Below, piece by piece: positions 1 through 11,254 of a stretch of DNA of 15,567 bases. Made by a program: the position numbers and the translations under genes. Position 1 is the first letter of the stretch. Each line of letters begins with the position of its first letter. This DNA is from Chitinophagaceae bacterium (GTDB lineage Bacteria > Bacteroidota > Bacteroidia > Chitinophagales > Chitinophagaceae): positions 1 through 15,567 of the forward strand of contig DAOLFO010000041.1 in assembly GCA_035326305.1 (NCBI GenBank), given 5' to 3'. The notes under the pieces were generated by a model, which worked only from the letters and a program-made list of their open reading frames with translations, made no database searches and was not told the origin of the DNA.

Positions 1-127
1 CAATACCACGTCCCATATATTCGTCGGCAGCAGCACCAAAGCCGGTGGCGTTGGCTGTTTTTATCTCCTGCTGGGTATATTGTTTGGAGCCTTTGTAGGC
101 GGCGCTGAAAAAATCTTCTCCATCCAT
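1..127 (-). CDS. Partial ORF, N-terminal 42 codons of a hypothetical protein running off the window start (MDGEDFFSAAYKGSKQYTQQEIKTANATGFGAAADEYMGRGI...)
   Basis: Reverse complement of 1..127 reads ATG GAT GGA... with no stop up to the window edge. It is divergent from the + gene at 354. No recognisable family. Confidence 0.3.
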   Translation of the reverse strand, partial: MDGEDFFSAAYKGSKQYTQQEIKTANATGFGAAADEYMGRGI

Positions 128-164
128 ATCGTAGCGATTTAGGAAACTAAGGTCGTAAAAATAT

Positions 165-194
165 TTTGAAAAACTAAAATATTTAGTAAATTTA
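165..194 (+). promoter_or_regulatory. Weak candidate Bacteroidetes-type promoter (TTTG-N18-TAAATTTA) upstream of the 2H phosphoesterase gene
   Basis: TTTG at 165-168 and TAAATTTA at 187-194. The spacing is 18 rather than 19-21 and the last base is A rather than G. It lies in a divergent intergenic region. Confidence 0.2.
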
Positions 195-353
195 TGCTAA
201 AAATATGGGGAACGGGGCGGCGGTTGATGAGGCGTGTACAGGACGGTGAAGTGTGCGATCCGCCAAAAGGTGGACAGGCTGCAACGAACAATGCCATGAA
301 ATGCTGCTGCCGGCTAAAAAATAAAATTAATCATCATTTAAAACAGGAGCGAT

Positions 354-968
354 ATGGAAAAAGTAATTAACAGCATACCGGGCTACCGGGTATATGAATA
401 CCTGCTGGTGCTGAGCCCGCATGAGGAGCTGTGGAATAAAATCATGAAAGTGAAGGATGAGTTTGCCACTGCTTATGATCAGGAACAGGCGAGGTGGGGC
501 AAGCCGCATGTGACGCTGGTAAGCTTTATACAGTATGCCATGATGGAGGAGCGGCTGGTAAACCGGCTGCGCACGGTGGCGATGGGCACCACACCGTTTA
601 AAGTGGAGCTGAAAGATTTTGGCAGCTTCCCTGCGCATACCATTTATATCAATGTGCTGAGCAAAGTGCCGGTGCAGACACTGATTAAAAATATACGGCA
701 TGAAACGCAGCGGCTGATGAAGCTGAATGAGGACAATAAGCCGCACTTCATACTGGAGCCGCACCTGACGATAGCCCGGCGGCTGCAGCCCTGGCAATAT
801 GAGAAGGGCTGGCAGGAGTATAGTCACCGGTCGTTTACAGGAAGGTTTATTGCAGATAGCGTGACACTGCTGCGAAGGCCGGTGGGGGAACTGAAGTACC
901 AGGCCGTGCGGCGTTTTGCCTTTCAGAATATGCCGGTGCGCACAAAGCAGGGGGAATTGTTTGGGTGA
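354..968 (+). CDS. 2H phosphoesterase superfamily protein, LigT-like (RNA 2',3'-cyclic phosphodiesterase / 2'-5' RNA ligase family)
   Basis: 204 aa with two H-x-T-x motifs (PHVTLVSF near residue 52, PHLTIARR near residue 138) about 86 residues apart, the defining pair of the 2H/LigT fold. The size is typical (E. coli LigT is 176 aa). Confidence 0.65.
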   Translation: MEKVINSIPGYRVYEYLLVLSPHEELWNKIMKVKDEFATAYDQEQARWGKPHVTLVSFIQYAMMEERLVNRLRTVAMGTTPFKVELKDFGSFPAHTIYINVLSKVPVQTLIKNIRHETQRLMKLNEDNKPHFILEPHLTIARRLQPWQYEKGWQEYSHRSFTGRFIADSVTLLRRPVGELKYQAVRRFAFQNMPVRTKQGELFG

Positions 969-1060
969 GAGGGTTTGAAGTTTGAAGTTTAAAGTTTGAG
1001 GTGTAAGGTTTAGGTGTTTAATAGGTTTAAGAAGTTCAAGAGGTTAAAAAAGTTTAAAGG
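966..1060 (+). repeat. Copy A of a C-depleted heptamer-array repeat (gtttgaa gtttgaa gtttaaa gtttgag gtgtaag gtttagg ... ggtttaagaagttcaagaggtt...)
   Basis: A tandem of degenerate 7-mers GTTTRAR/GTTCAAR seen directly in the sequence. It starts at the TGA stop (966-968) of the upstream gene. The block ggtttaagaagttcaagagg is shared with copy B. Confidence 0.8.
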
Positions 1061-1088
1061 GGTCTGGGGGAAATTATCAGCGGGGGGT

Positions 1089-1505
1089 ATGCGTATGGAA
1101 ATGAAGAACGGGAAAGTGCATGAGCCGCTTTCCGGCAGGGAAAAATACCTGACCGGGCAGGTGGTGGGCATTGCCATAGCGATACACAGGGCACTGGGTC
1201 CGGGACTGCCGGTGCAGGTATACGAAAGATGCTTTTGCCACGAGCTTCACAAAAGAGAAATAGGTTATGTGCGGCAGCATAAAATTGATTTGGTATATGA
1301 TGATATACGGATAGAGGATGGCTTGCAAATAGATATTTTGATAGATGACCTTATCATCATTGAGCTGAAAGCGCAGGAAGCGCATCACCCTGCCTGGGAG
1401 GCCCGGTTGCTAAGCTGCTTAAGGCTGACAAAGAAACGACTGGGCTATATACTGAATTTCCATGCGCCGTTGATGAAAGAGGGTATTAAGCGAATGATAA
1501 TCTGA
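1089..1505 (+). CDS. GxxExxY family protein (PD-(D/E)XK nuclease superfamily)
   Basis: The core ...GKVHEPLSGREKYLTGQVVGIAIAIHRALGPGLPVQVYERCFCHELHKREIGYVRQHKIDLVYDDIRIEDGLQIDILIDDLIIIELKAQEA...LGYILNFHAPLMKEGIKRMII matches the conserved GxxExxY layout (HR.LGPGLLE.VYE ... ELK ... INF). The ORF-track start at 1014 runs through repeat A (FKKFKRLKKFKG) and is probably an artefact. Likely starts are Met 1089, 1095 or 1101. Confidence 0.75.
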   Translation: MRMEMKNGKVHEPLSGREKYLTGQVVGIAIAIHRALGPGLPVQVYERCFCHELHKREIGYVRQHKIDLVYDDIRIEDGLQIDILIDDLIIIELKAQEAHHPAWEARLLSCLRLTKKRLGYILNFHAPLMKEGIKRMII

Positions 1506-1570
1506 TATAACTATTTTTTTATTCACTGTGTTACTCTGTGTCTCCGTGTCGTTGTGCTTAAAAATGAGCT

Positions 1571-2695
1571 ATGAGTAATCAGTTAAAGCAGGACCACTAT
1601 AAAGTGGCCCCGAAAAAGCAGGAGGAAGCAGCGGGAGAAAAAGCGGGCAGCTATATTGCCGGAAGAGGGGCGCAATTCAATACGAAAAACCGGTTTCTGA
1701 AAGATGAACGGACCCGGGAGCATATCGAAGGCATTGATGACTGGGAAGAAGCCATACAACCCACACAATATATCGAGCAGCAGGCAAAGACGATTGTGAA
1801 TAAGGTGGAGAGCAAAGATGTGGGCATGGGCTACAGCATGAATCCGTATGCCGGCTGTGAGCATGGCTGTATCTACTGCTATGCACGCAATGTGCATGAA
1901 TACTGGGGCTATAGCGCCGGGCTGGACTTTGAGCAGAAAATCATTGTAAAAAAGAATGCACCGCAACTGCTGCGGAAATTCCTGATGCACAAAAGCTGGG
2001 ATGCCACACCCATCATGCTCAGTGGTAATACCGACTGCTATCAGCCCGCCGAACAAAAATACCGGCTGACGCGGGGGCTGCTGGAGGTTTGCAATGAGTT
2101 TAACCAGCCGGTGGGCATACTGACTAAAAATTCATGGATACTGAAGGATAAGGATGTACTGCAGGAAATGGGGCGGAAAAAAATAGTATCGGCCATGGTG
2201 TCTATTACTTCCTTTAATGAAGACCTGCGCCGGGTAATGGAGCCGAGAACAACTACTGCCAGGCAAAAACTAAAAGTGATTAATGAATTGAGCAGCGCCG
2301 GTGTGCGCATGGGCATCATGATGGGGCCGATGATACCCGGCCTGAATGAGCATGAGATGCAGCGCATCATGAAAGCGGCGGCAGACAATGGCGCCACGTT
2401 TACCGCCTATACTTTCATCCGGCTGAACGGGGCCATCAAGTTTTTGTTTCATGACTGGTTGTATAAAAACTTTCCTGACCGGGCAGATAAAATATGGCAC
2501 CTGATAGAAAAAAGCCACGATGGCAAAGTAAATGATACCCGGTGGGGAGTACGTATGAGGGGGGAAGGGCCGATAGCAGAGATAGTGGCGCAGCAGTATA
2601 AAAAGTATGGAAAGCTCTATGGGATGAATGCAGAGGAGTGGAGCCTTGAGAGGAACCTGTTCAGGAGGCCGGGCGAGCAGGGAAGGTTGTTTTGA
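1571..2695 (+). CDS. Radical SAM protein, PA0069/SplB-like family (COG1533 'DNA repair photolyase'-type)
   Basis: 374 aa with the CxxxCxxC cluster in YAGCEHGCIYCYARN. Length and layout match the PA0069-family rSAM proteins. Its TGA stop (2693-2695) is the first triplet of repeat copy B. Confidence 0.7.
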   Translation: MSNQLKQDHYKVAPKKQEEAAGEKAGSYIAGRGAQFNTKNRFLKDERTREHIEGIDDWEEAIQPTQYIEQQAKTIVNKVESKDVGMGYSMNPYAGCEHGCIYCYARNVHEYWGYSAGLDFEQKIIVKKNAPQLLRKFLMHKSWDATPIMLSGNTDCYQPAEQKYRLTRGLLEVCNEFNQPVGILTKNSWILKDKDVLQEMGRKKIVSAMVSITSFNEDLRRVMEPRTTTARQKLKVINELSSAGVRMGIMMGPMIPGLNEHEMQRIMKAAADNGATFTAYTFIRLNGAIKFLFHDWLYKNFPDRADKIWHLIEKSHDGKVNDTRWGVRMRGEGPIAEIVAQQYKKYGKLYGMNAEEWSLERNLFRRPGEQGRLF

Positions 2696-2750
2696 GATTT
2701 GGGAGGTTTAAGAAGTTCAAGAGGTTTAAAGTTTAATGTTTAAGGTTGGG
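2693..2750 (+). repeat. Copy B of the heptamer-array repeat (tgagatttgg gaggtttaa gaagttcaa gaggtttaa agtttaa tgtttaa ggttggg)
   Basis: Seen directly. It shares TGAGATTTG with copy C, ggtttaagaagttcaagaggtttaaa with copy A and gtttaaggttggg with copy D. Confidence 0.8.
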
Positions 2751-3110
2751 TGGTGTTAAAGTACCAGGGAAGGCTTGTTGTAACAGGTTGCCGGTAAAAA
2801 TAGCAGCAAGCATAACGATGAGGTTTTTGAAATCTGCTTAAGAATGTCTGCAATGGTTACAGGCAGGCATCACCTGATACGAGATGGCGGTGAAAGAGCT
2901 GCTATAAATTATTTTTTAAAAATTCTTCTTCAAAAATTTGGCAACAACAAAAAAATAGTTTCATCTTTGCACCGCAAAACAAAAAACATGCTACGCATAC
3001 AGTTACATATTGAAGCAGGAAATTGGTTTAGCCCCAAAGGAGGCTATACCAGTTGCGGGGCATGTAGTGCTGCGAATTAAGTTGCAATAACTCATTCAAT
3101 GAAATACAGG

Positions 3111-3140
3111 CCCCGCAAGAGATTGCGGGGTTTTTGTTTG
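3111..3140 (+). terminator. Rho-independent terminator (CCCCGCAA-gaga-TTGCGGGG + TTTTTGTTTG)
   Basis: A perfect 8-bp GC-rich stem, 4-nt loop and T-run. There is no convincing protein gene upstream, so it probably ends an ncRNA or leader. Confidence 0.7.
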
Positions 3141-3399
3141 TATATATTTCACCACCTGCCGGCATCCTGACAGATGCTGAAGCGGGAGTAAGAAAATAAA
3201 AATCAAAAGAGATAAATGACAGTGTTATCATGGTATCATCAGTTGGGGAGTAAAAAAAATACACCCTTAGGCATGTGCTGCTTTATAAAAGCAGTTGCGG
3301 GGAATGGTGTGCCCGTTATGCAAATTGATAACCGAAATAAAAATAAAAGACCGGATGGTATTCCGATACGGGTGTGTTAACACCTGTCAGCAGGATTAA

Positions 3400-3430
3400 G
3401 CCCGGTCAGCAGTTGACCGGGCTTTTTTAT
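3400..3430 (+). terminator. Rho-independent terminator (GCCCGGTCA-gcagt-TGACCGGGC + TTTTTTAT)
   Basis: A 9-bp stem, 5-nt loop and T6 run, immediately upstream of the SD of the 45-aa ORF. A T-run follows only on the + strand. Confidence 0.7.
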
Positions 3431-3450
3431 ACCCGGAAAAAGGAGGAGCT

Positions 3451-3588
3451 ATGAAATTTTTGCTGGCTGTACTGGTAATTCACCTGGTAATCGCTTTTAT
3501 CAGCAACAGGAAAGAAAATAAAAAAATGCAGCAGGGGCAGCCGAAAGCTGATGGTGCTTTGCATCCGGCGGAGTACCTGCTGCGCTAA
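3451..3588 (+). CDS. Small ORF, 45 aa, hydrophobic N-terminal helix plus charged tail (MKFLLAVLVIHLVIAFISNRKENKKMQQGQPKADGALHPAEYLLR)
   Basis: An ATG preceded by AGGAGG 4 nt upstream, which is unusual in this genome style. One predicted TM helix followed by a basic tail. It sits between a terminator and the tRNA-like genes. Confidence 0.3.
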   Translation: MKFLLAVLVIHLVIAFISNRKENKKMQQGQPKADGALHPAEYLLR

Positions 3589-3702
3589 CAGGATTATGTG
3601 CAGAAGGAGGGATAAAGCTCCCCGCAGGTGCAGCGGGGATGCTTTTCCAAAAAAACAACCGTTAAACCTACTATGAAAATGGCGGCAGCAATGCCGCTGC
3701 CT

Positions 3703-3775
3703 ATAGCAGCATTCCAATTGGTTGGATACTCCGCCTGGAACGGAGAGGATGCAGGTTCGAGCCCTGCCTGCTATA
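3703..3775 (+). tRNA. tRNA-like gene, 73 nt cloverleaf, anticodon UGG (Pro) at canonical positions, with C8 and C33
   Basis: Hand fold of 3703..3775. Acceptor ATAGCAG/CTGCTAT is 7/7 paired. D-arm TTCC-AATTGGTT-GGAT has G18G19. Anticodon stem CTCCG/CGGAG with loop CCTGGAA. Variable loop AGGAT. T-arm GCAGG-TTCGAGC-CCTGC has a canonical T-loop. Discriminator A. The deviations are A1-U72, C8 (normally U), C33 (normally U) and one D-stem mismatch. Confidence 0.5.
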
Positions 3776-3860
3776 CATTAATTGTTATGAATTTAGAGAG
3801 AGAGAGAAGCCGGAGGCTTAAGCCATCCGCTAAAACAGTATGAATAAACAAGAGCAGTAC

Positions 3861-3933
3861 GGTGCTTTGGCAGAATGGATAGATGCGCCGGAGTGAAATC
3901 CCGGAGATCGTGGTTCAATTCCACGGGGCACCA
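3861..3933 (+). tRNA. tRNA-like gene, 73 nt cloverleaf, anticodon GAA (Phe), followed by CC
   Basis: Hand fold. Acceptor GGTGCTT/GGGCACC with two G-U pairs, U8. D-arm GCAG-AATGGATAG-ATGC. Anticodon stem CCGGA/CCCGG with an A31-C39 mismatch and loop GUGAAAU (U33, G34A35A36, A37). Variable loop AGAT. T-arm CGTGG-TTCAATT-CCACG. Discriminator A73, then CC at 3934-3935. G32 is unusual. Confidence 0.5.
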
Positions 3934-3971
3934 CCGGAAGAGTAGAAAATAAAAAAAGAAAACAAAGGAAA

Positions 3972-4499
3972 ATGGAGGCCGATATGGAAGAGACACAGCT
4001 ACAATGGAGAAAGCTGAACGGTGAGCGGCTGCGGATACCTATTGCCGAAGAAGTAAGCCGCATATTAATGCAGGAACGTGCTATGGGATATGATGTGAAA
4101 GCCTGTATTGGCACCGATAGCCAGGTGAAAGGTAAAGTGACAACGTTTGCTACCGTTATAGTATTTGTCCGGAAAGGAAAAGGCGGCTTCATGTATATAA
4201 GGAAAGAAGTTACAACACAGCGGATGAGCATCAAACAAAGGATGCTGGAAGAGGTGGCCAGGAGCGTGGAAGTGGCTTATGGGCTGTGCCGGTTATTTTC
4301 CCGGCATGGAGTGGATATGGAAGTGCATGCGGATATAAACACCAATCCGGGCTTCAAAAGCAACGATGCGTTAAAGGACGCCATGGGCTATATCATGGGA
4401 ATGTTTGCCCGGCCGGGAGAAACGGGTGGAGGCTTTGCCTTCAGGGCTAAACCGGATGCTTTTGCCAGCTCCAGTTGTGCAAATAAAATAGTGCAATAA
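3972..4499 (+). CDS. Hypothetical protein, possibly DUF458/YkuK-like RNase H-fold family
   Basis: 175 aa. CIGTDSQ near residue 45, VTTFATVIVFVRKGKGG, EVHADINTNP and a C-terminal AFASSSCANKIVQ resemble what I recall of the YkuK (DUF458) family. The family call is from memory, not a search. The gene itself is solid (clean ORF, co-oriented, 36 nt after tRNA-like 2). Confidence 0.45.
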   Translation: MEADMEETQLQWRKLNGERLRIPIAEEVSRILMQERAMGYDVKACIGTDSQVKGKVTTFATVIVFVRKGKGGFMYIRKEVTTQRMSIKQRMLEEVARSVEVAYGLCRLFSRHGVDMEVHADINTNPGFKSNDALKDAMGYIMGMFARPGETGGGFAFRAKPDAFASSSCANKIVQ

Positions 4500-4529
4500 C
4501 ACATAGCGGAGAGCTATAAATTTTTTTTA

Positions 4530-5606
4530 ATGGAACATTTATTTAATCAGAAAATCATCAATGCCAATAACGTGTTTGATGATGTATTCCTGGATGCGAA
4601 GATGCTGTACCTGTACTGCTTCAATCATTTGCCCAGCAGGAATTTTATTGACCGGGTGGACGGCGAAAAAGCCTTTGCTGCGTTTAAAGAGCGCTATGCA
4701 GATATGATTGAGCACATTCATCAGTACCGGTGGTATCAGCAGGAGAAAAGGAAGTACCGGTTTGACCGGACTGTATTGATCCTGAAGAACAATTGCATTG
4801 CGGAGTTTGATGAAAACTATTGTGAGTTTTATCATGATGGCGGGGATGCAGGGTTTGCAGATGAATTGACGGCGCTGGTATGCCAGTTTAAAGAGCGGCA
4901 GCGCAGACAGCCCCTGGAGATTAACCTGATTGTGAAAAATAGCAGGGGGCTGTACCTGAAGGGTATGGAGATAAAACGTACAAAGCTGGATCTTGACCTG
5001 TATTATGAAGATGATTTTAAGGAAGTGGATCAGTTGATAAGGGAGCGGTTGTCGAAGAAAAATGATAAAGGCATCGTGTTGCTGCACGGGCTGCCGGGTA
5101 CGGGTAAAACAACTTACCTGCGCCACCTGGTGGGCAGGATACGGAAGCGGGTGCTTTTCCTGTCGCCATCGGTAGCGGATGATCTGATGAACCCGGATTT
5201 TATCGAGCTGCTTATTGATAACCCCAATACCGTACTGATCGTGGAAGATGCGGAAAATATTATCAGGGACAGGAAGTATAGCAATAACACATCGGTATCA
5301 AACCTGCTGAACATCTCTGACGGGCTGCTGGCGGATTTCCTTAATGTGCAACTGATCTGTACGTTCAACAGTTCGCTGACAATGATAGATCATGCGCTGA
5401 TGCGGAAAGGAAGGCTGATAGCCAGGTATGAGTTTGGTAAGCTGAGCGCCGGGAAAAGCCAGCGGCTGAGCGACCGGTTTGGCTTTAAAACAAGCATCAG
5501 CGGGCCGATGACGATAGCGGAGATTGCCAACCAGCATGAGAAAAGGCAGGAGCCGGAAAAAGTGGAGATAATCGGGTTCCGGCGCACTGCAGAATTGATG
5601 AATTGA
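4530..5606 (+). CDS. AAA+ family ATPase (classical AAA core in the C-terminal half, uncharacterised ~170-aa N-terminal domain)
   Basis: Walker A GLPGTGKTT, Walker B VLIVEDAE, and SRH/arginine-finger region HALMRKGRLIARYEFG. There is no protease or other fused domain, and the N-terminal region has no recognisable motifs. Confidence 0.85.
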   Translation: MEHLFNQKIINANNVFDDVFLDAKMLYLYCFNHLPSRNFIDRVDGEKAFAAFKERYADMIEHIHQYRWYQQEKRKYRFDRTVLILKNNCIAEFDENYCEFYHDGGDAGFADELTALVCQFKERQRRQPLEINLIVKNSRGLYLKGMEIKRTKLDLDLYYEDDFKEVDQLIRERLSKKNDKGIVLLHGLPGTGKTTYLRHLVGRIRKRVLFLSPSVADDLMNPDFIELLIDNPNTVLIVEDAENIIRDRKYSNNTSVSNLLNISDGLLADFLNVQLICTFNSSLTMIDHALMRKGRLIARYEFGKLSAGKSQRLSDRFGFKTSISGPMTIAEIANQHEKRQEPEKVEIIGFRRTAELMN

Positions 5607-5803
5607 TTTCAACCTGATAGCTGACCGGGTGTCAGCGCAAAAGCTTGCTTAACGGCAGGGCTGGTATTGCCTCTCCGGCAGTTAAACTATGCTTGTGTTT
5701 TTTAAAGGCACAGCAGTGCAGGCGCTATAGCTACCTGTATGCTGTTGCTGCAGCAGGGCATACCGGTAACACGCAGTTTCCTGAACGGGAAGTGCAACCA
5801 CTT

Positions 5804-5839
5804 GCAGGTTCGAGTCCTGCTTCTCCCCCAACGGGAGAA
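5804..5839 (+). other. Isolated tRNA T-arm plus acceptor-like hairpin (minihelix-like tRNA fragment)
   Basis: GCAGG-TTCGAGT-CCTGC is a canonical T-stem/T-loop, 16/17 identical to the T-arm of the 3703 tRNA-like gene. It is followed by TTCTCCC-ccaac-GGGAGAA. No 5' acceptor strand or anticodon arm could be folded upstream. Confidence 0.35.
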
Positions 5840-6206
5840 TGGCGGAATTGGTAAACGCAAAGCAATGGGGATGCTTCGTAAAAAGAAGTACACCACTTCT
5901 TAAAAAATGGTGAAGTGATAAAGCTGGTATTTCATGCCGGCCATACAATTCCCTGGTACTTCGCCGGTGTACGTTTTGGGTATGCTGGCACATGGCGGGA
6001 AGTATGGCAACCGGCTAACGGCCTGCAGGCAGGTAATGTACAGATGGCTTGTATAATAAAGGCGATGACTGGCAGTAGGCAAAAAGCTTGCAGGCACTTG
6101 TTGCATAAAATATACAATAGTTTAGGCTCAGCCTGCCTCCGCTGATAGCCGGTGGTATGAAATACTGGTTTTATTAAACAGGTAATAACAGTTAAAAGAT
6201 AAAAAA

Positions 6207-7307
6207 ATGAAAAAAGTAAAAGTAAATGAATACCAGGTGGCGCTGGTTTTCAAAGACGGGGAGTATAAGAGGATGCTGACCAAAGGCGTGTACTGGTTTT
6301 GGGGAAATGAAGTGATACAGTATTATGATAAAACCAGGCCATTTGCAGCACCGATTGACCTGAATATCCTTTTGCAGGATAAAGCGCTGGCCGATGCCCT
6401 GTATGTAACCGATGTAAAAGAGAACGAGATAGTACTGCAGTATGAGCAGGGATTGCTGAGCAACGTGCTGGTTGCCGGAAGGTATGCTTTCTGGAAAGGT
6501 ATTGTTGATTATAAATTTGTATGGGCGGATATTGGTAAGATAGCCATCACTGAAGATATCAGCAGGACTATACTGATGAGCAGGCAGGTAGCGCCATATG
6601 TGCGTACCGTAAATGTGGAGAATTATGAAAAAGCGATCCTGTTTGCAGACGGTAAATATGACCGGGTGCTTGACAGCGGTGTGTACTACTGGTGGAAGAA
6701 CAGCATCACAGTGCATATAGCGAGGGTGGACATGCGCCAGCAGCAACTGGAGATCAATGGCCAGGAAATACTGACCAGGAATAAAGCGGCATTGCGCATC
6801 AATGCGTGGGCACAGTATAGGGTAGCAGATATAGAGACAGCTATATTGGATAACAAGGAGTATGATAAGCAGCTCTATGTAGCTTTCCAACTGGCCCTGC
6901 GGGAATATGTGGCCGGCTTCAGTTTTGATGAGCTGCTGGAGAAGAAAGATACCGTTGCAAAGTTTGTGCTGGAGCAAATGAAGCAGAAAGCAAAAGAGCT
7001 GGGCGTGGACGTGAATGACTTCGGCATCAGGGATATCATATTGCCGGGTGATGTGAAAGAGATCATGAACCAGGTACTGATAGCAGAGAAGAAAGCACAG
7101 GCTAACACTATCATGCGCCGGGAAGAAACAGCCAGCACCCGGAGCCTGCTGAACACTGCCAAACTGATGGAGGATAATGTAATGCTATGGAAGCTGAAGG
7201 AAATGGAGTATGTAGAGAAAATTGCAGATAAGATCACTAACATCAGTGTAAATGGTAACGGTGACCTGGTAAGCCAGTTGAAGCAGATATTTGTGGCGCA
7301 GAAATAA
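6207..7307 (+). CDS. SPFH/band-7 (stomatin/slipin-like) domain protein with a duplicated N-terminal module
   Basis: 366 aa. The N-terminus has an internal repeat (NEYQVALVFKDGEYKRMLTKGVYWFWG vs ENYEKAILFADGKYDRVLDSGVYYWWK). An SPFH core follows (LEINGQEILTRNKAALRINAWAQYRV...ILPGDVKEIMNQVLIAEKKAQANTIMRREE) with a coiled-coil-like C-terminus. Confidence 0.8.
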   Translation: MKKVKVNEYQVALVFKDGEYKRMLTKGVYWFWGNEVIQYYDKTRPFAAPIDLNILLQDKALADALYVTDVKENEIVLQYEQGLLSNVLVAGRYAFWKGIVDYKFVWADIGKIAITEDISRTILMSRQVAPYVRTVNVENYEKAILFADGKYDRVLDSGVYYWWKNSITVHIARVDMRQQQLEINGQEILTRNKAALRINAWAQYRVADIETAILDNKEYDKQLYVAFQLALREYVAGFSFDELLEKKDTVAKFVLEQMKQKAKELGVDVNDFGIRDIILPGDVKEIMNQVLIAEKKAQANTIMRREETASTRSLLNTAKLMEDNVMLWKLKEMEYVEKIADKITNISVNGNGDLVSQLKQIFVAQK

Positions 7308-7312
7308 ACACA

Positions 7313-7346
7313 CATCCGGTGCCGGCCGGTGCCGGATGTTTTTTAT
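7313..7346 (+). terminator. Strong rho-independent terminator (CATCCGGTGCCGG/CCGGTGCCGGATG hairpin + TTTTTTAT)
   Basis: A GC-rich stem of about 11-13 bp centred on CCGGCCGG, followed by a T6 run, 6 nt after the SPFH stop. Confidence 0.75.
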
Positions 7347-7352
7347 TTGAAA

Positions 7353-7405
7353 TGAGATTTGAAGTTTGAGGTTTAATGTTTAAAAGGTTCAGGAGGTTTA
7401 AAAAT
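7353..7405 (+). repeat. Copy C of the heptamer-array repeat (tgagatttgaa gtttgag gtttaat gtttaaa aggttcag gaggtttaaaaa)
   Basis: Seen directly. It lies between the SPFH terminator and the rtcB start, and its left end TGAGATTTG is identical to copy B. Confidence 0.8.
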
Positions 7406-7411
7406 AGTTTT

Positions 7412-8857
7412 ATGAGCAAATTAAAAATAACAGGGAAAGACCTGAGAGCTATTGATTACCCGGAGGGCCCGGTGATCAGCATAGCCATGCGTGTGGTGCA
7501 TAAGCATTACAAGCATCATGAAAAGGAGGAGGTAATGGACATATTAAAAAGAATACTGGCGGAGCCGGTGGAGTATGAGAAGGATGCGGTGCTGGGATTG
7601 ATAGCAGCGCAACTAATGCCAAAGAAGAAGGAAGGGAATGCAGAAATATCATTGAACCAGCAGGGAATACAATTTAGTGTATTCGGGCAGGAGCATATTG
7701 AAGAAGGGGCGATGCACCAGATGTACCAGGCGGCAAAGTTGCCCATAGCAGTTGCAGGTGCTTTGATGCCGGATGCCCATAGCGGGTACGGACTGCCTAT
7801 TGGTGGCGTATTAGCTACGCAAAATGCAGTGATACCTTATGGTGTGGGAGTAGACATCGGGTGCCGGATGTGCCTGAGCCTGTATGATATTGATCCAAAA
7901 GAGCTGGTGAACCGGGAGGCATTTTTTATACGGGAGCTGGGTGTGGCTACACTGTTTGGAAGCGGTGCACAATTTCAGCAAGCTGCCGATCATGCCGTGA
8001 TGGAGAATGAGCTGTTCAGGCAATTGCCATTGCTTAAACCCTTGCACGGAAGGGCATGGAAACAATTGGGATCATCCGGCTCCGGTAATCACTTTGCCGA
8101 ATTTGGGATAGTGGAAATAGCAGAGAAGGATGCTGTGCCGGGTGTGGAAGCGGGAAGCTATGTAGGTTTTCTGACGCACTCCGGTTCACGGGCATTGGGG
8201 GCCAATATTGCCAACCATTATACAAAGCTGGCCATCAGCAAAAGACGGCTGCCGCAGGAAGCGAAAAACCTGGCCTGGCTGACACTTGATGAAGCAGAGG
8301 GACATGAGTACTGGCTGGCGATGAACCTGGCCGGGGATTATGCATCGGCCTGCCACCATGTGATGCACGATAAGATTGCTAAACAACTGGGAAGAAAACC
8401 ACTAAAGCGGGTGGAGAACCACCACAACTTTGCCTGGAAGGAAATGTATGAAGGGCAGGAGGTAATTGTACACAGAAAAGGCGCTACACCTGCAGGGAAA
8501 GATGTGCTGGGTATTATTCCCGGTTCGATGACGGCAGCCGGGTTTATTGTAAAAGGTAAAGGAGAGGTTGCCTCTGTCAACTCAGCATCCCATGGTGCAG
8601 GAAGAAAGATGAGCCGCAGCAAAGCACTGCAATCAGTAACGGACAGGCAAATGAGAGAGGAACTGGATAAGCATGGCGTGAAACTGCTGGGTGGCGGACT
8701 GGATGAATCGCCATTTGCTTACAAGGACATTCATGTAGTGATGCAATCGCAACAATTGCTGGTGGATATAGTAGGACAGTTTACGCCAAAAATTGTAAAG
8801 ATGGATGGCGCACCACATAAGCAGTGGGGGAAGAAGGGTTCGGGAGGCAGGGTTTAA
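7412..8857 (+). CDS. rtcB: RNA-splicing ligase RtcB (3'-phosphate/2',3'-cyclic phosphate to 5'-OH RNA ligase)
   Basis: MPDAHSGYGLPIGGVLAT...IPYGVGVDIGCRM, GSGNHFAEF, ENHHNFAW and SASHGAGRKMSR are hallmark RtcB metal/GTP-binding motifs. The ORF-track start at 7376 reads through repeat C (MFKRFRRFKNSF), so Met at 7412 (MSKLKITGKDL) is the more likely start. Confidence 0.9.
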   Translation: MSKLKITGKDLRAIDYPEGPVISIAMRVVHKHYKHHEKEEVMDILKRILAEPVEYEKDAVLGLIAAQLMPKKKEGNAEISLNQQGIQFSVFGQEHIEEGAMHQMYQAAKLPIAVAGALMPDAHSGYGLPIGGVLATQNAVIPYGVGVDIGCRMCLSLYDIDPKELVNREAFFIRELGVATLFGSGAQFQQAADHAVMENELFRQLPLLKPLHGRAWKQLGSSGSGNHFAEFGIVEIAEKDAVPGVEAGSYVGFLTHSGSRALGANIANHYTKLAISKRRLPQEAKNLAWLTLDEAEGHEYWLAMNLAGDYASACHHVMHDKIAKQLGRKPLKRVENHHNFAWKEMYEGQEVIVHRKGATPAGKDVLGIIPGSMTAAGFIVKGKGEVASVNSASHGAGRKMSRSKALQSVTDRQMREELDKHGVKLLGGGLDESPFAYKDIHVVMQSQQLLVDIVGQFTPKIVKMDGAPHKQWGKKGSGGRV

Positions 8858-8892
8858 AGTTCAAAGTTTAAAGTTCAAGGTTTAAGGTTGGG
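8851..8892 (+). repeat. Copy D of the heptamer-array repeat (ggtttaaa gttcaaa gtttaaa gttcaag gtttaag gttggg)
   Basis: Seen directly. The rtcB stop codon TAA (8855-8857) lies inside the first unit. Its right end gtttaaggttggg matches copy B. Confidence 0.8.
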
Positions 8893-8965
8893 ACAGAATG
8901 GTTTTTGTCGCATTTGCCCCGTATAATAGTCGGCTATAGCACGCCTGTGGTAAAGTGTGCGGATA

Positions 8966-8973
8966 TAATTTTG
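8966..8973 (+). promoter_or_regulatory. Candidate Bacteroidetes -7 element TAATTTTG about 22 nt upstream of the DoxX-like gene
   Basis: It matches TAnnTTTG exactly, but there is no clear -33 TTTG partner. Confidence 0.2.
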
Positions 8974-8994
8974 TTGTACTAAAACCAACGAATC

Positions 8995-9387
8995 ATGAAG
9001 ACGTACAAAATTATTTACTGGATATCCACTTCCCTGTTATTCATTTTTCAGGGAGTGATGCCTGCCCTGACCGGGCATACAGAAATGGCAAAAGAAGGGA
9101 TACGCCATCTTGGTTATCCCGAATATTTCGGAACAGCCTTAACAGTGGCCAAAGTGATCGGCGCCGTAGCGCTGATCCTTCCGCAGGTACCACGTACGGT
9201 CAGGGAGTGGGCTTATGCCGGCTTTGCCTTTGATTTTACTTTTGCTTTTATCAGCCTGGTGGCGGTGGATGGCTGGATGGCCAGCTCCTTTTTCCCATTA
9301 GTGACAATGGCGGTGCTGATTATCTCCTATTACTGTTATCACCGGCTGCGGGCAGCCCGCGCATTATCATCAGTGCGCAGCCTGTAA
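8995..9387 (+). CDS. DoxX-like family membrane protein
   Basis: 130 aa with four predicted TM segments. MKTYKIIYWISTSLL...HLGYPEYFGTALTVAKVIGAVALILPQVPRTVREWAYAGFAFDF follows the DoxX-like pattern (HLGFP.YF, KEWAYAGF). Confidence 0.65.
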   Translation: MKTYKIIYWISTSLLFIFQGVMPALTGHTEMAKEGIRHLGYPEYFGTALTVAKVIGAVALILPQVPRTVREWAYAGFAFDFTFAFISLVAVDGWMASSFFPLVTMAVLIISYYCYHRLRAARALSSVRSL

Positions 9388-9420
9388 TGCCGGTTGTTTT
9401 AATTGTATAACCATATAAAG

Positions 9421-9452
9421 AAAAGGCAGCGCTACACTGCCTTTTCTTTTTC
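9421..9452. terminator. Bidirectional rho-independent terminator between convergent genes (AAAAGGCAG-cgctaca-CTGCCTTTTCTTTTT)
   Basis: Hairpin GGCAG/CTGCC with an A-run on the 5' side and a T-run on the 3' side. It overlaps the stop codon of the minus-strand META gene and lies 38 nt after the DoxX stop. Confidence 0.65.
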
Positions 9453-9857
9453 TATGCTGAATACCAGCAGTAACGTATCGCCCTGGTACAAGCGCAGTAT
9501 ATCATTTTCTGCAGCATACTTATCTGCCTGTGCCAGCAGTTGAAAAAACTGGTCTTCTGTTCCCTGTACGGCTTCGCAATACATTTTGGTAGAAAACAGG
9601 TGCTGTATGCTGATGCTGTCATTGCTGATTTGCAGGCTGCCGCCAAAACTATTGCAACTACCGTTGCCGCTCACACGGTTTTGCTCCGTGTCGAACCGGA
9701 TGAATGCTTTTGTATTAACAGCAATGCTGCTGTCACCCAGCTTTATTTCTTTGAGCAGCCATTTTTTGCCACCGGGCAAACCTGTGTTTATATCCTGGTG
9801 AGCTGAAGCCGCAATGGCTATAAAAAGGAATGATGCGATGATGCTTATTTTGTTCAT
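9432..9857 (-). CDS. META domain (HslJ-like) protein with signal peptide
   Basis: 141 aa with an N-terminal signal peptide. AFIRFDTEQNRVSGNGSCNSFGGSLQI...STKMYCEAVQGTEDQFFQLL closely parallels the HslJ/META motifs (RVSGFSGCNRFFGSY...STRMACLSGMEQEQRFLQAL). Confidence 0.7.
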   Translation of the reverse strand: MNKISIIASFLFIAIAASAHQDINTGLPGGKKWLLKEIKLGDSSIAVNTKAFIRFDTEQNRVSGNGSCNSFGGSLQISNDSISIQHLFSTKMYCEAVQGTEDQFFQLLAQADKYAAENDILRLYQGDTLLLVFSIEKEKAV

Positions 9858-10054
9858 CTGTATTTATTTTATGACTTACAGATGAAAGCTGCTGTTTTAT
9901 TACACAACTATTTTTTGCCAGGAAAGATAAAATACTGTTAAGGAGCCGTGCTTTAACCGGGCAACCGGGCGGCGTGCATCGTGTACTGTACATTCCCTGT
10001 CACAGCCAATCACTAAATCGGGAATCTCTAAATCTTACACCATCAAATCAGCCG

Positions 10055-11254
10055 CTATACTTTAATGTAAATTTTCTTTTTATCCAGCCACCAGCAGATA
10101 AACCACATAAAGGTAATGACCGTGAGCGCATACAGCAGTGAACCCACTTCCGGCGTTTGTGGCAATACCTTAGACCATACATGCTTATACAGCCAGTTCC
10201 AGGGTGTGCTGCCGTCTGCAAAACGTATAAGGTTGAGCCCTTTGGGCAAAAAGGCGCTGAGGGCAAAAACGAAAAGCGCATTTTTGCCAAATACATCAAA
10301 GAAGCGGGTGAGCGCATTTTTAACCTCTTTTATTTCTATGATATAAATCATTGCTGCAATAATCGCCAGCGCCAGCCCGGTGGTATATACTACATAGGAG
10401 CTTGTCCATATTTTTTTGTTAATGGGAAACACCATATCCCAGGCATAGCCTGTAATGAGTAAAATACAGGCGGCCAGGAACAATCCTGTTATCATAGGAT
10501 AAAGTACACCGCCTTTGAGCAAGGTTGTTTTTGCCATTTCGGCCTGCAGCAGTGTTTGCTGCGGCTTGTTGCGGATATAAAAACCCACGAGGTAACCAAA
10601 TAATACCTGAACGATGGCCGGAAGGGTGCTCATCAGCCCTTCGGGATCGAAAGGCACGCCTTCTCCCTTGTACAGGTGGGCAGTGCCGAGTATTTCTTTG
10701 TCAATGTCTGTTCCAAACCAGCCGGCCAGGCTGTAAGGGTCACCGGGATTGCCCAGGTAGCAAAGCACCCAGTATAATAATAGGAGCAGGAGGCCAGCGA
10801 GGAAAGCTCCCCTGACTTTGCAGTAATAAATAATAATAGCAGCAAAGAAATAGCAAACAGCAATGCGCTGCAGTACGCCAAAAATGCGTACGCCGCTTTC
10901 GGGATTATCGGGGTTTACCCAGTGGCGGAATACCAGCTCCCCTTCCTTCCAGCTTACAAAAGGCCACCAGTTGAGAAACAGGCCTATAAGAAAAATAAGC
11001 AGGCTGCGCTTAATGACTTTTTTCCAGAAAAGGGCTGCGCCGCCCTGCTCCAGCCGGGGCATCACAAAGGCAAGGGCATTGCCCACGGCAAATAAAAAGA
11101 AGGGAAATACCAGGTCAGTCGGTGTCAATCCATGCCAGGGGGCATGCTTGAGCGGGGCAAACATATGGCTCCAGGAGCCGGGATTGTTGACCAGTATCAT
11201 GAGGCAGACAGTGGCGCCGCGAAAAACATCGAGGGAGTAAAAACGGGAGTTCAA
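10055..11254 (-). CDS. DUF5009/DUF1624 membrane acyltransferase, heparan-alpha-glucosaminide N-acetyltransferase (HGSNAT)-like
   Basis: 399 aa, multi-pass membrane protein. The N-terminus SLDVFRGATVCLMILVNNPGSWSHMFAPLKHAPWHGLTPTDLVFPFFLFAVG is the characteristic signature of this family. Confidence 0.75.
   Translation of the reverse strand: MNSRFYSLDVFRGATVCLMILVNNPGSWSHMFAPLKHAPWHGLTPTDLVFPFFLFAVGNALAFVMPRLEQGGAALFWKKVIKRSLLIFLIGLFLNWWPFVSWKEGELVFRHWVNPDNPESGVRIFGVLQRIAVCYFFAAIIIYYCKVRGAFLAGLLLLLLYWVLCYLGNPGDPYSLAGWFGTDIDKEILGTAHLYKGEGVPFDPEGLMSTLPAIVQVLFGYLVGFYIRNKPQQTLLQAEMAKTTLLKGGVLYPMITGLFLAACILLITGYAWDMVFPINKKIWTSSYVVYTTGLALAIIAAMIYIIEIKEVKNALTRFFDVFGKNALFVFALSAFLPKGLNLIRFADGSTPWNWLYKHVWSKVLPQTPEVGSLLYALTVITFMWFICWWLDKKKIYIKV

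Follow-up and report, generated by a model that had tools for sequence, protein, structure and literature searches.

A probable Band-7 (SPFH)/tRNA-like RNA/RtcB repair system of Chitinophagaceae within a larger operon-like module

Introduction

The closest described relative of the locus considered here is the Band-7 (SPFH)/b7a-tRNA/RtcB RNA-repair system, a prediction from comparative genomics (Burroughs and Aravind 2016, NAR 44:8525) in which, as summarised in bioRxiv 10.1101/312249, an RtcB gene adjoins a cytoplasmic Band-7/slipin gene and a tRNA-like non-coding RNA. A second is the Y RNA YrlA with Rsr (Ro60), encoded beside RtcB in the Salmonella rsr-yrlBA-rtcBA arrangement. Cyanobacterial tRNA arrays, which are compact, same-strand sets of divergent isodecoders, are genomically linked to rtcB and co-induced with it under translational stress, and a role in coping with impaired translation has been proposed for them (2021, PMC8421152). 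Leader-peptide attenuators (trp, his; antibiotic-responsive erm, cat and vmlR-type) consist of a short translated ORF and an intrinsic terminator, with an alternative pairing that competes for the terminator 5' arm and whose availability is set by ribosome position.

The window, that is, the whole stretch of DNA analysed, comprises 15,567 nt of a Chitinophagaceae bacterium (GCA_035326305.1, contig DAOLFO010000041.1, positions 1-15,567, forward strand). The region studied, positions 354-8857 of this soil-bacterium locus, carries every gene on the + strand, and was compared with loci of 80 Chitinophagales species, 240 phage loci and 80 metagenome loci. An initial annotation had suggested that it could be an undescribed RNA-repair module, or a counter-defence island, whose RNAs mimic tRNAs. 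The conserved RNA-repair-type module with tRNA-mimic RNAs stands; its undescribed status and the membership of a PD-(D/E)XK gene do not. We consider that the window probably holds a Chitinophagaceae Band-7 (SPFH)/tRNA-like RNA/RtcB repair system built into a larger, operon-like module whose trigger would be damage to the translation apparatus.

The b7u RNA, the SPFH protein and RtcB

The part of the locus that corresponds to the described system consists of the following features:

5639-5900, +, structured non-coding RNA, here called b7u, 5' of the SPFH gene (partial YrlA match, 21.9 bits; RNAalifold consensus)
5804-5820, +, T arm of the b7u module
5821-5839, +, acceptor hairpin
5841-5858, +, D arm
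5860-5876, +, anticodon-like arm
5884-5900, +, terminal hairpin
6207-7307, +, cytoplasmic SPFH/Band-7 (slipin-type) protein (PF01145, 2.5e-32; stomatin matches in the PDB)
7312-7339, +, strong terminator 3' of the SPFH gene
7412-8857 (ORF from 7376), +, RtcB RNA ligase acting on 3'-P or 2',3'>P and 5'-OH ends (PF01139, 1.1e-77)

A tRNA minihelix-like fragment had been noted among these genes. There is indeed a third tRNA-like fragment (5802-5858, partial YrlA match), but it is not a minihelix on its own: the alignment predicts that it belongs to b7u, a structured RNA of about 300 nt that the initial annotation missed. This RNA has a 5' multi-helix domain and a circularly permuted tRNA-like module; relatives have two such modules, the first of which is degenerate in the window (about 5770-5795). 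In the consensus 92.7% of cells are paired and 60 of 84 pairs carry compensatory changes, a level reached by none of 500 shuffles. All 30 loci with an SPFH gene encode b7u, and loci without that gene have none. An N-terminal segment of the SPFH protein is duplicated. The protein shows no obvious membrane helix and shares 36-38% identity, along its whole length, with the slipins encoded in a Citrobacter rtcR locus and in a Burkholderia tRNA-like-SPFH-RtcB locus. RtcB bears an N-terminal extension of about 100 aa, and its metal-binding and guanylylation motifs (MPDAHSGYG, GSGNHF, HSGSR, HGAGR) are intact and align with solved RtcB structures.

The SPFH, tRNA-like RNA and RtcB part is thus already described, since it equals the predicted Band-7/b7a-tRNA/RtcB system as bioRxiv 10.1101/312249 summarises it. 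Compared with that summary, the region 354-8857 lacks RtcR and RtcA, and its RNA of about 300 nt combines a 5' domain with circularly permuted modules instead of normal tRNA topology; the RNA of the Burkholderia locus keeps the normal tRNA order, and a GAAA tetraloop replaces its anticodon loop. The probable leader-peptide attenuator, tRNA array, DUF458 gene and Bcs1-like AAA+ gene are additions relative to it.

With YrlA, b7u shares its position beside RtcB and the topology of its tRNA-like domain (closing stem, T arm, acceptor hairpin, D arm). The b7u of locus L010 matches Rfam YrlA over model positions 22-89 with 37.2 bits (E 1e-6), which is below the gathering threshold of 69, and the Ro60-binding helix of the model is left unmatched. 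Moreover, the b7u modules stand in tandem, the 5' domain differs, and the partner gene is SPFH rather than Ro60/TROVE. Domains of TROVE, RtcA, RtcR and archease are absent from every ORF scanned within 354-8857, which bears out the earlier exclusion of an rsr-Y RNA-rtcBA arrangement.

The tRNA array, DUF458 and the AAA+ ATPase

Upstream of b7u lie two tRNA-like genes, reported earlier as anomalous and both matched by the Rfam tRNA model, followed by two protein genes:

3703-3775, +, tRNA-like gene 1 (Rfam tRNA 48.5 bits; no ARAGORN call; cloverleaf fold)
3861-3933, +, tRNA-like gene 2 (Rfam 46.2 bits; ARAGORN Phe-GAA)
3972-4499, +, DUF458/YkuK-like RNase-H-fold protein, RNaseH_like (PF04308, 1.8e-31)
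4530-5606, +, Bcs1/YjoB-like AAA+ ATPase (PF00004, 8.6e-10; PDB sequence matches to Bcs1)

Gene 1 has an A1-U72 pair, the anticodon loop CCUGGAA (C33, UGG) and an atypical D arm; these odd features are conserved in an alignment of 24 loci. The 3' flank, ending in CTATACA, is conserved as well. Gene 2 is a non-canonical tRNA-Phe(GAA) isodecoder with the loop GUGAAAU and an A31-C39 mismatch, a variant that at least 12 loci retain. The usual loop of tRNA-Phe is CUGAAAA; one canonical tRNA-Phe gene outside an array scores 68.7 bits, against 43-61 bits for the array Phe genes checked in the window and three relatives. Judged from the relatives, the two genes belong to an array that can run to 15 divergent non-canonical tRNAs, where gene 1 always stands first and gene 2 stands last, a membership that the initial annotation had not recognised. 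Arrays among relatives hold 0-15 genes in a recurrent, same-strand order; between species their members are only 62-84% identical, with altered anticodon loops.

These arrays share with the cyanobacterial ones (PMC8421152) the compact, same-strand layout, the divergent isodecoders, the linkage to rtcB and the proposed role. They are shorter, with 0-15 members (the window has 2), and chromosomal at a fixed site, and in place of a repressor acting on promoter direct repeats they appear to have a leader ORF with a terminator. A term search of PMC8421152 did not find DUF458, AAA+ or SPFH partners.

The DUF458 gene starts 38 nt past the last tRNA-like gene, and its protein conserves D49, E94, D121 and N123; the GxDSQ, EV and DxN motifs are invariant between it and phage homologues. 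In all 80 phage loci these homologues have tRNA genes beside them on the same strand. The AAA+ protein has Walker A (GLPGTGKT) and Walker B (VLIVEDAE) motifs and belongs to a family of 1713 clusters at E<=1e-30. Mitochondrial Bcs1 and Bacillus subtilis YjoB are its best matches in sequence and fold, including the domain N-terminal to the ATPase. They lead the Foldseek results (E about 1e-6) for an AF2 model of mediocre, low confidence (pLDDT 62), while identity is only 10-16% and the window protein has no membrane anchor. Phage tRNA arrays adjoin AAA+ relatives in about 27 of 80 loci; more distant relatives (about 40% identity) neighbour WYL regulators and exonucleases, not RtcB. An HNH endonuclease and a HAD_SAK_2 RNA-repair domain occur near the phage copies, the former a further likeness to the cyanobacterial array system (PMC8421152).

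In view of this phage connection, the locus could be a phage-derived or mobile counter-defence island, in which a captured tRNA array with DUF458 and AAA+ would counter anticodon nucleases by supplying resistant tRNAs, RtcB and SPFH would have joined later, and the leader would be a promoter region only. The abundance of AAA+ and DUF458 homologues beside tRNA arrays in large phage contigs (at least nine contigs have both), the repair-related neighbours just mentioned, and anticodon-loop changes similar to those reported for phage tRNAs speak for such an origin. We nevertheless regard it as unlikely, and the earlier suggestion finds little support: the window contains no mobility genes such as an integrase, no phage structural genes and no composition shift, the chromosomal position is fixed across genera, PADLOC returns only weak P-loop hits, and the constant pair in bacteria is leader plus AAA+, frequently accompanied by RtcB and by no tRNA gene.

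Linkage of the module in Chitinophagales

Across the 80 Chitinophagales species, linkage is found for DUF458, AAA+, SPFH, RtcB and the tRNA-like genes, and it is kept throughout 12 different gene orders. The AAA+ ATPase is the constant protein. RtcB follows downstream on the same strand in 43 of 58 loci, DUF458 is present on either side of the AAA+ gene in 31 of 49, and the smallest version is leader-AAA+-RtcB (e.g., locus L031). The genes at the 5' end of the region behave differently:

354-968, +, 2H/LigT-like phosphoesterase, 2_5_RNA_ligase2 (PF13563, 3.2e-20; PF02834, 2.6e-07)
1089-1505 (ORF from 1014), +, GxxExxY PD-(D/E)XK protein, PDDEXK_3 (PF13366, 3e-30; TIGR04256, 110 bits)
1571-2695, +, PA0069-family radical SAM protein (NF033668, 460 bits)

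Pfam and NCBIfam agree with all seven earlier domain calls (2H/LigT, GxxExxY PD-(D/E)XK, PA0069-type radical SAM, DUF458 RNase-H-like, AAA+, SPFH and RtcB), with HMM searches bearing out DUF458, 2H and RtcB at the E-values listed. The 2H protein has two readable HxT motifs (HVTL, HLTI), and TIGR02258 scores it under its cutoff. The GxxExxY gene, flanked by GTTTAAAG-type repeats, has no tblastn match in any of the 80 related loci; by this comparison it is a window-specific insertion outside the module to which it had been assigned. ORF starts 1014 and 7376 are probably too far upstream; the ORFs drawn from them traverse such intergenic repeats, and 1089 and 7412 are the likely starts. The 2H and radical SAM genes, likewise counted earlier as members, form a separate upstream unit: the two occur together in 16 of 49 loci, while the radical SAM gene is present in 18 of 49. 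This gene often lies directly upstream of the leader element, ending 57-156 nt before it in 8 loci and 0.5-5 kb before it in 15 others. Their linkage amounts to synteny, and their membership is uncertain.

Because all 80 genome loci come from the single order Chitinophagales, the linkage may partly be inherited synteny. In its full form this explanation takes the array as a housekeeping tRNA operon, RtcB, SPFH, AAA+ and DUF458 as adjacent by descent, and the small ORF with its terminator as an unrelated sRNA or peptide gene. The flanking NagX, NusG-like, Wza and Wzc genes are also syntenic in several genera. Even so, we find it improbable, since the linkage outlasts the reordering and variable content described above, the arrays vary in size, sequence and anticodon loop, b7u and SPFH never occur apart, and the pairings recur in unrelated lineages, namely Burkholderia (tRNA-like-SPFH-RtcB) and phages (DUF458-tRNA arrays).

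The leader element

Between the radical SAM gene and the array lie three small elements and a hairpin:

2961-3140, +, leader element sA, upstream of the AAA+ gene in 63 of 64 loci
2961-2969, +, Bacteroidetes-type -7 promoter box of sA, TCATCTTTG
2988-3080, +, 30-codon leader ORF of sA, MLRIQLHIEAGNWFSPKGGYTSCGACSAAN, preceded by an A-rich 5' UTR
3053-3061, +, region 2 of sA, TTGCGGGGC
3108-3133, +, intrinsic terminator of sA, then a U run
3240-3432, +, element sB: 35-codon ORF, CAGTTGCGGGG motif common to sA, strong terminator at 3398-3424
3451-3588 (element 3451-3640), +, second conserved small ORF, 45 aa, with a hydrophobic N-terminus and C-terminal HPAEYxLR
3619-3639, +, G+C hairpin between the second small ORF and the tRNA-like genes

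The leader frame is open in 65 of 65 sequences (the other two frames in 15 and 10 of 65), and conserved residues show synonymous codon changes, with a CGAC motif conserved in the peptide. In region 2, codon 23 is NGC regardless of amino acid and Gly24 is GGG in 26 of 28 cases, whereas Gly18 uses all four codons; these patterns point to constraint at the RNA level, stronger on nucleotide than on amino acid. In the leader alignment 90% of terminator cells are paired; the antiterminator reaches 83%, against 35-47% in slid controls, with compensatory changes present. The terminator 3' arm is duplicated inside the leader ORF, and the architecture with its three-way match is re-created with different sequence in loci L308 (CACCGGG / CCCGGT / ACCGGG), L271 and L314. 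Together, the ORF and the terminator/antiterminator are probably a ribosome-stalling attenuator, which the initial annotation had missed.

As in known leader-peptide attenuators, an alternative pairing is predicted to compete for the terminator 5' arm. In contrast to them, sA lacks a stretch of regulatory codons for a single amino acid (its peptide draws on about 17-18 different ones), no region 1:2 pairing was identified, and what lies downstream is a set of tRNA and RNA-repair genes instead of genes for biosynthesis or resistance. Sensing of specific tRNAs by the leader was considered and is unsupported, because the amino-acid content matches that of the array no better than background (0.530 vs 0.523).

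That the ORF instead encodes a functional small peptide, such as a cysteine-containing precursor that the radical SAM enzyme would modify or a ribosome-arrest peptide sensing a specific small molecule, is highly improbable: the amino-acid-level conservation, CGAC included, and the nearby radical SAM gene would suit it, but the ORF is present in 63 of 64 loci and that gene in no more than 18 of 49, PA0069-family enzymes are not known to mature peptides, a terminator always follows the ORF and has its 3' arm duplicated where nucleotide constraint prevails, and the peptide has no Pfam match.

Element sB folds stably (z-score -4.2) and is poorly conserved, with nhmmer matches in 2 loci only; it may be a decayed duplicate of sA. 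The second small ORF, also without a Pfam match, has identical termini in about 20 of the 33 loci that match the 3451-3640 region. As terminators lie inside the module at 3108-3133, 3398-3424 and 7312-7339, it may comprise several transcription units.

Proposed working of the module

The module that we favour would run from the promoter and 30-codon leader with its terminator/antiterminator through the second small ORF, the non-canonical tRNA array, DUF458, the Bcs1-like AAA+ protein, and the RNA of about 300 nt with permuted tRNA-like modules to the cytoplasmic SPFH protein and RtcB. How the switch works, that stress induces it, and what DUF458, AAA+ and SPFH do are inferred from this anatomy. 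In healthy translation, the ribosome would reach the leader stop and cover TTGCGGGGC or separate it from the terminator 5' arm, so that the terminator would form and the module would be off. When the ribosome stalls or fails to load, as cleaved or depleted tRNAs, ribotoxins or translation inhibitors could cause, TTGCGGGGC would pair with the terminator 5' arm and transcription would read through. Read-through would yield putative spare tRNA isodecoders whose anticodon loops are altered at positions 32, 37 and 38, and DUF458 may be what processes or cleaves the transcript of the array. The AAA+ protein probably acts in remodelling, and the SPFH protein, together with its tRNA-like RNA, probably serves as a scaffold or a decoy. 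RtcB would reseal RNA ends with 2',3'-cyclic phosphate and 5'-OH.

The locus links an RNA ligase and its putative helpers to tRNA look-alikes and appears to be switched on by a small upstream gene sensing stalled ribosomes, which opens a poorly understood RNA-damage response to direct tests.

Gene content of the window

The genes of interest form a plus-strand run that spans 354-8857, in a window whose GC content stays between 42 and 52% and shows no composition break. Pfam and NCBIfam confirmed all seven domain assignments of the initial annotation. Rfam finds both tRNA-like genes proposed there, and ARAGORN calls the second only. The features are listed below.

Features of the gene run (coordinates, strand, assignment and support)
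354-968, +, 2H/LigT-like protein (PF13563, 3.2e-20)
1014-1505 as first read, gene taken as 1089-1505, +, GxxExxY PD-(D/E)XK protein (Pfam/NCBIfam)
1571-2695, +, PA0069-family radical SAM enzyme (NCBIfam, 460 bits)
3703-3775, +, tRNA-like gene 1 (Rfam tRNA, 48.5 bits)
3861-3933, +, tRNA-like gene 2 (Rfam tRNA, 46.2 bits)
3972-4499, +, DUF458/RNaseH_like protein (PF04308, 1.8e-31)
4530-5606, +, AAA protein (Pfam)
5802-5858, +, partial YrlA match (Rfam, 21.9 bits)
6207-7307, +, Band_7 (SPFH) protein (PF01145, 2.5e-32)
7376-8857 as first read, +, RtcB (PF01139, 1.1e-77)

Both HxT motifs of the 2H protein (HVTL and HLTI) are readable in its translation, and the protein scores below the NCBIfam equivalog cutoffs for LigT proper. 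When RtcB is aligned with solved structures of RtcB proteins, MPDAHSGYG, GVDIGC, GSGNHF, HSGSR and HGAGR all match; motifs for metal binding and guanylylation are kept, and the active site is intact by sequence. TROVE, RtcA, RtcR and archease had been described as absent, and the module gene run indeed contains no such domain; for TROVE (Ro60/rsr), Pfam and NCBIfam returned none among the ten window ORFs scanned (354-11254). PADLOC does not place the locus in a known defence system, as its hits are just weak P-loop matches to the AAA+ protein.

Tandem 7-9 nt repeats of the GTTTAAAG/GTTCAAG type occupy the intergenic gaps 973-1067, 2680-2750, 7357-7402 and 8852-8892, where they border the GxxExxY gene and RtcB. 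Because of these repeats, the ORFs read from 1014 and 7376 bear spurious N-terminal extensions (MFNRFKKFKRLKKFK and MFKRFRRFKNSF).

Conservation of the neighbourhood in Chitinophagales

A scan based on the AAA+ protein, with one genome per species, yielded 80 loci at 54-76% identity, all from Chitinophagales. Their contents were determined with tblastn, nhmmer and ARAGORN, and the denominators below are loci with enough flanking sequence.

Occurrence of module components in related loci
RtcB downstream on the same strand: 43/58
SPFH: 30/58
DUF458: 31/49 (23 upstream of AAA+, 8 downstream)
At least 2 same-strand tRNAs just upstream: 32/64
At least 5 same-strand tRNAs just upstream: 19/64
Radical SAM: 18/49
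LigT and radical SAM: 16/49
GxxExxY: 0/80

The DUF458, AAA+, SPFH and RtcB genes are arranged in 12 different orders among these loci, and AAA+-RtcB is the minimal form (e.g., L031). The linkage of the four genes, on which the initial annotation had called for a neighbourhood analysis, therefore outlasts rearrangement, which argues for function. A few loci (L012, 9055-11089, and L060, 8967-11077) lack RtcB, SPFH and DUF458 and have a DinB_2 superfamily gene between the leader element and AAA+; since both the leader and AAA+ are kept there, these two form the constant pair. We hold with high confidence, from its anatomy and linkage, that the locus is a real conserved module.

The PD-(D/E)XK gene, which had been counted as part of the module, does not belong to it, being absent from all 80 related loci. 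The LigT and radical SAM genes adjoin each other in related loci, with no GxxExxY gene between them. The GxxExxY gene (1089-1505) looks like a selfish insertion, and the 2H and radical SAM pair is best regarded as a separate upstream unit, linked to the module at the level of synteny.

A leader element with the anatomy of an attenuator

The most conserved non-coding piece of the locus is the leader element at 2961-3140 (sA). Of 64 loci, 63 carry it upstream of AAA+, invariably on the AAA+ strand, and some carry it twice. In an alignment of 65 copies, a -7 box of the Bacteroidetes type (TCATCTTTG) is followed by an A-rich leader, a near-invariant ATG at 2988, and a G+C hairpin with a U run at 3108-3133. 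The reading frame from this ATG is open in all 65 sequences for 25-33 codons, and the other two frames are open in just 15 and 10 of the 65. The consensus peptide is MLRIQLHIExxNWFSPKGDYTxCGACxAxE, with synonymous variation at the conserved residues Pro16, Lys17, Gly18 and Asp19.

Codons 22-25 of the leader ORF contain TTGCGGGGC (3053-3061, region 2), which duplicates the 3' arm of the terminator; the 5' arm, GCCCCGCAA (3110-3118), is complementary to region 2. The terminator helix, with its U run, has 90% of alignment cells paired and shows covariation. The alternative antiterminator helix, 3053-3061/3110-3118, is paired in 83% of cells; sliding the partner by 1-3 columns lowers this to 35-47%. 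Six pairs of the helix carry compensatory changes. Codon 23 is NGC regardless of the residue encoded, and the Gly24 codon is GGG in 26 of 28 cases, while Gly18 uses all four codons; in region 2, the nucleotides are under stronger constraint than the amino acids. More distant metagenomic loci reproduce this design with other sequences. L308 pairs CCCGGT with ACCGGG in its terminator and has CACCGGG at the end of its leader ORF; L271 and L314 follow the same pattern.

This anatomy is probably, in our estimate, that of a ribosome-dependent transcription attenuator. A ribosome at the end of the leader would cover, or sit between, the antiterminator strands, and the terminator would form; with the ribosome absent or stalled earlier, region 2 would be free to form the antiterminator, and transcription would continue. 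Control by ribosome position is what we infer. As in leader-peptide attenuators, a short conserved ORF stands directly before an intrinsic terminator, and an alternative pairing masks the terminator 5' arm. Unlike them, the leader here has no run of regulatory codons for a single amino acid; the aligned leader peptides contain on average 17.2 different residues, compared with 14.6 (SD 1.45) in random 30-mers. The idea that the leader samples the codons read by the array tRNAs was rejected, as the array amino acids make up 0.530 of leader residues against a background of 0.523. Nothing relevant on leader peptides upstream of rtcB or tRNA operons was found within the literature searched. Assignment of sA, of its candidate copy sB or of the RNA upstream of SPFH (b7u) to a known Rfam family was rejected, since the sub-threshold matches alone were obtained and are due to terminators or tRNA-like parts.

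Further small elements lie nearby. Downstream, sB (3240-3432) holds a 35-codon ORF (MCCFIKAVAGNG...) and a strong terminator at 3398-3424; its CAGTTGCGGGG motif is identical to leader region 2, and it is kept in 2-3 loci only. Possibly it is a copy of the leader element in decay. The stretch 3451-3640 holds another conserved small ORF (3451-3588, 45 aa, hydrophobic N-terminus), recovered in about 20 loci. It ends in a C-terminal motif (R/I)HPAE(Y/F)xLR before the stop and is followed by a G+C hairpin directly before tRNA-like gene 1; the ORF may encode an arrest peptide or add a further point of ribosome-dependent control. Two leader copies are present in L290 (7739-7914 and 9113-9289) and also in L077, L078, L080 and L018, one before AAA+ and the other before DUF458 or another sub-unit, which suggests that each sub-operon could have its own attenuator.

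The tRNA-like genes belong to an array

Between the leader and the DUF458 or AAA+ gene, relatives carry tightly packed tRNA genes on one strand, as many as 15 of them and only 3-10 nt apart, in the recurrent order Pro, Glu, Asp, Gln, His, Arg, Ile, Met, Ile, Val, Lys, Asn, Tyr, Ser, Cys, Phe, Trp. The window has two genes, which correspond to the first and last array members. Both exceed the Rfam tRNA threshold of 29 bits, and in the seven loci scanned array members score 36-73 bits, with the window pair in the lower part. The array Phe genes of the window and three relatives score 43-61 bits, compared with 68.7 for one canonical non-array Phe gene.

The window pair departs from the universal features of the anticodon arm and D loop (U33, a paired 31-39, a standard D loop). 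Gene 1, the one that ARAGORN leaves uncalled, combines C33 with an atypical D arm; gene 2 shows A31-C39 and the loop GUGAAAU in place of the canonical CUGAAAA. These oddities recur across loci. In 24 loci, the first array member is marked by A1-U72, an odd D arm and, in most cases, C33, and array Phe loops read GUGAAAU (with A31-C39), UUGAAGC, UUGAAGA or UUGAAAG. The anomalies pointed out in the initial annotation are conserved features and not decay. Same-anticodon array tRNAs are just 62-84% identical between species, a divergence that suggests extra copies, and by sequence the array tRNAs are not typical housekeeping genes.

Long tRNA arrays of cyanobacteria offer a precedent: they are linked to rtcB and are co-induced with rtcB by translation inhibitors (PMC8421152). 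Compared with these L-arrays, the window has just two genes, and its relatives reach 15 on one strand.

SPFH, its upstream RNA and RtcB

The window SPFH protein has full-length homologues at 34-42% identity in Firmicutes and Proteobacteria, and its identity to a Citrobacter slipin linked to rtcR and a Burkholderia slipin linked to RtcB is 36-38%, across 96-97% of the protein. In Citrobacter freundii, the homologue lies between the divergent rtcR and a nucleotidyltransferase gene. In Burkholderia cenocepacia (NZ_CP091013.1, L322), the order is a tRNA-like gene, the SPFH homologue and RtcB; at 4600-4730 of this locus, a T-arm/acceptor minihelix precedes the tRNA-like gene, which has a GAAA tetraloop for its anticodon loop and for which ARAGORN calls a 2-nt anticodon.

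Wang et al. 2018 (bioRxiv 10.1101/312249) attribute to Burroughs and Aravind 2016 the observations that some bacteria encode RtcB beside a Band-7 protein and a predicted "band 7-associated tRNA", and that YrlA is occasionally found beside a Band-7 gene; the 2018 text describes the prediction as being without experimental validation. The window has three features of this system: RtcB, an adjacent slipin and an adjacent tRNA-like RNA. Because of the contexts of the Citrobacter and Burkholderia homologues, the SPFH-RNA-RtcB part is assigned to the predicted Band-7 system, and the idea of an undescribed module gives way in its core, for which the Band-7/tRNA-like RNA/RtcB combination had already been predicted, as reported in that preprint.

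The RNA in question, b7u (5639-5900), is conserved in 30 of 30 SPFH loci and in none without SPFH. In the RNAalifold consensus of 34 aligned copies, a 5' multi-helix domain is followed by two modules in tandem, each ordered closing stem, T arm, acceptor hairpin, D arm, and then by an anticodon-like arm and a terminal hairpin. The fold is supported by pairing in 92.7% of cells, where slid controls reach 38-49%, by compensatory changes at 60 of 84 pairs, and by 421 observed double-changed cells against 126 (SD 9) in shuffles. The window copy has lost module 1.

In module order, b7u follows the tRNA-like domain of YrlA. Positions 29-81 of the Rfam YrlA model match the window copy (21.9 bits) and positions 22-89 match L010 (37.2 bits, E 1e-6), both below the Rfam gathering threshold of 69. 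The Ro60-binding helix of YrlA (model positions 1-21 and 90-114) is unmatched in b7u, and, unlike in the YrlA/Rsr system, there is no adjacent rsr gene among the ten ORFs scanned. The Burkholderia RNA shares the tandem tRNA-like modules, in normal order there and permuted in b7u. A reading of modules 1-2 as a normal tRNA (Rfam tRNA 40 bits in L010) was set aside, as the acceptor pairing it requires is unsupported in L006, judged by eye in this one sequence.

The first ~130 residues of the SPFH protein (6207-6600) repeat the start of its own SPFH domain (VNEYQVALVFKDGEYKRMLTKGVYWFW vs VENYEKAILFADGKYDRVLDSGVYYWW), and the protein is probably cytoplasmic, because no membrane helix is evident. 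RtcB is separated from the SPFH stop codon by a strong intrinsic terminator (7312-7339, 12-bp stem and U run), and may therefore be transcribed separately or conditionally.

AAA+, DUF458 and the connection to phages

The AAA+ family comprises 1713 clusters at E<=1e-30, each of about 360 aa. By sequence and fold, the closest proteins are Bcs1 and B. subtilis YjoB, including the N-terminal domain before the ATPase. The AF2 model is mediocre (pLDDT 62, pTM 0.36; residues 21-120 at 70-91), and the suggested resemblance to Bcs1/YjoB is the sole point taken from it. In a distant clade (~40% identity; L241-L259, L267, L288, L292), a WYL-WCX regulator is found in 10 of 13 loci and an RNase_T exonuclease in 5 of 13, and neither RtcB nor tRNAs are linked. 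On this comparison, the AAA+-RtcB link is specific to the subclade at >=47% identity, and the family as a whole would be a stress- or conflict-associated remodeller.

Residues D49, E94 and D121 are invariant in a DUF458 alignment with phage and bacterial members; the RNase H1-clade assignment of DUF458 is itself a prediction (PMC3985635). A single-query search with the window protein gave no viral relatives. With a phage DUF458 protein as query, 80 viral loci were obtained (L161-L240, IMG/VR contigs, DUF458 at ~6001-6453). All 80 have same-strand tRNAs and none has opposite-strand tRNAs; 69 have at least five same-strand tRNAs within 6 kb (up to 27), counts that are not independent events because the phage loci are mutually related. 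Upstream, the closest tRNA is usually 15-300 nt away, and tRNAs flank 26 of the copies on both sides. DUF458-like ORFs also occur inside some phage tRNA arrays, with the invariant GxDSQ, EV and DxN in common with the window protein.

Viral contigs, many of them 100-390 kb long, are likewise rich in AAA+ relatives; in about 27 of 80 cases, an array of 10-22 tRNAs lies on the same strand at a distance of 0.5-8 kb, and at least 9 phage contigs carry AAA+ and DUF458 together. The link of DUF458 and AAA+ to tRNA arrays is thus shared with phages, and these sequence data point to DUF458 as a dedicated enzyme for phage tRNA clusters. Within the literature searched, there was no functional study of DUF458 and no paper tying it to tRNA arrays.

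Near one phage AAA+ gene (L098, 6970-11714) are genes for an RNase_T/ExoX-like exonuclease, UvdE and HAD_SAK_2 (PF18143), the HAD domain of 'Swiss Army Knife' RNA-repair proteins. An HNH endonuclease gene lies inside a phage tRNA array (L128, 14695-15294).

Significance of the module

Taken from sequence comparison, the module core is a member of a predicted RNA-repair system, to which the probable attenuator, the non-canonical tRNA array, the SPFH-tied permuted double tRNA mimic and the DUF458/AAA+ link to arrays are additions. A response to tRNA or translation damage, and the roles of the individual proteins, are proposed with lower confidence. As a tentative proposal, to which we give somewhat less than an even chance, a single ribosome-stalling sensor, the 30-codon leader, would run a 'translation emergency kit' in Chitinophagales, consisting of spare tRNAs, DUF458, AAA+, SPFH with its tRNA mimic, and RtcB. 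In this kit, the spare tRNAs would evade nucleases, the DUF458 nuclease would be dedicated to tRNA arrays and shared with large phages, AAA+ would act as a Bcs1-like remodeller, and SPFH would form a cage loaded with a permuted double tRNA mimic.

With its start codon, region 2 and terminator, the leader provides a compact candidate switch, defined at the sequence level and open to mutation and reporter assays, and b7u is a covariation-supported RNA with a clear candidate protein partner, suited to biochemistry. The array members are natural tRNA variants altered where anticodon nucleases and modification enzymes recognise them. The processing and purpose of phage tRNA clusters are debated, and the adjacency of phage DUF458 to tRNAs provides a lead on them. 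To our knowledge, the substrates and triggers of RtcB are largely unknown outside E. coli and Salmonella. If the proposal is true, the leader would be the first attenuator known for tRNA supply and RNA repair, and the module would give DUF458 and the window AAA+ family their first functional context.
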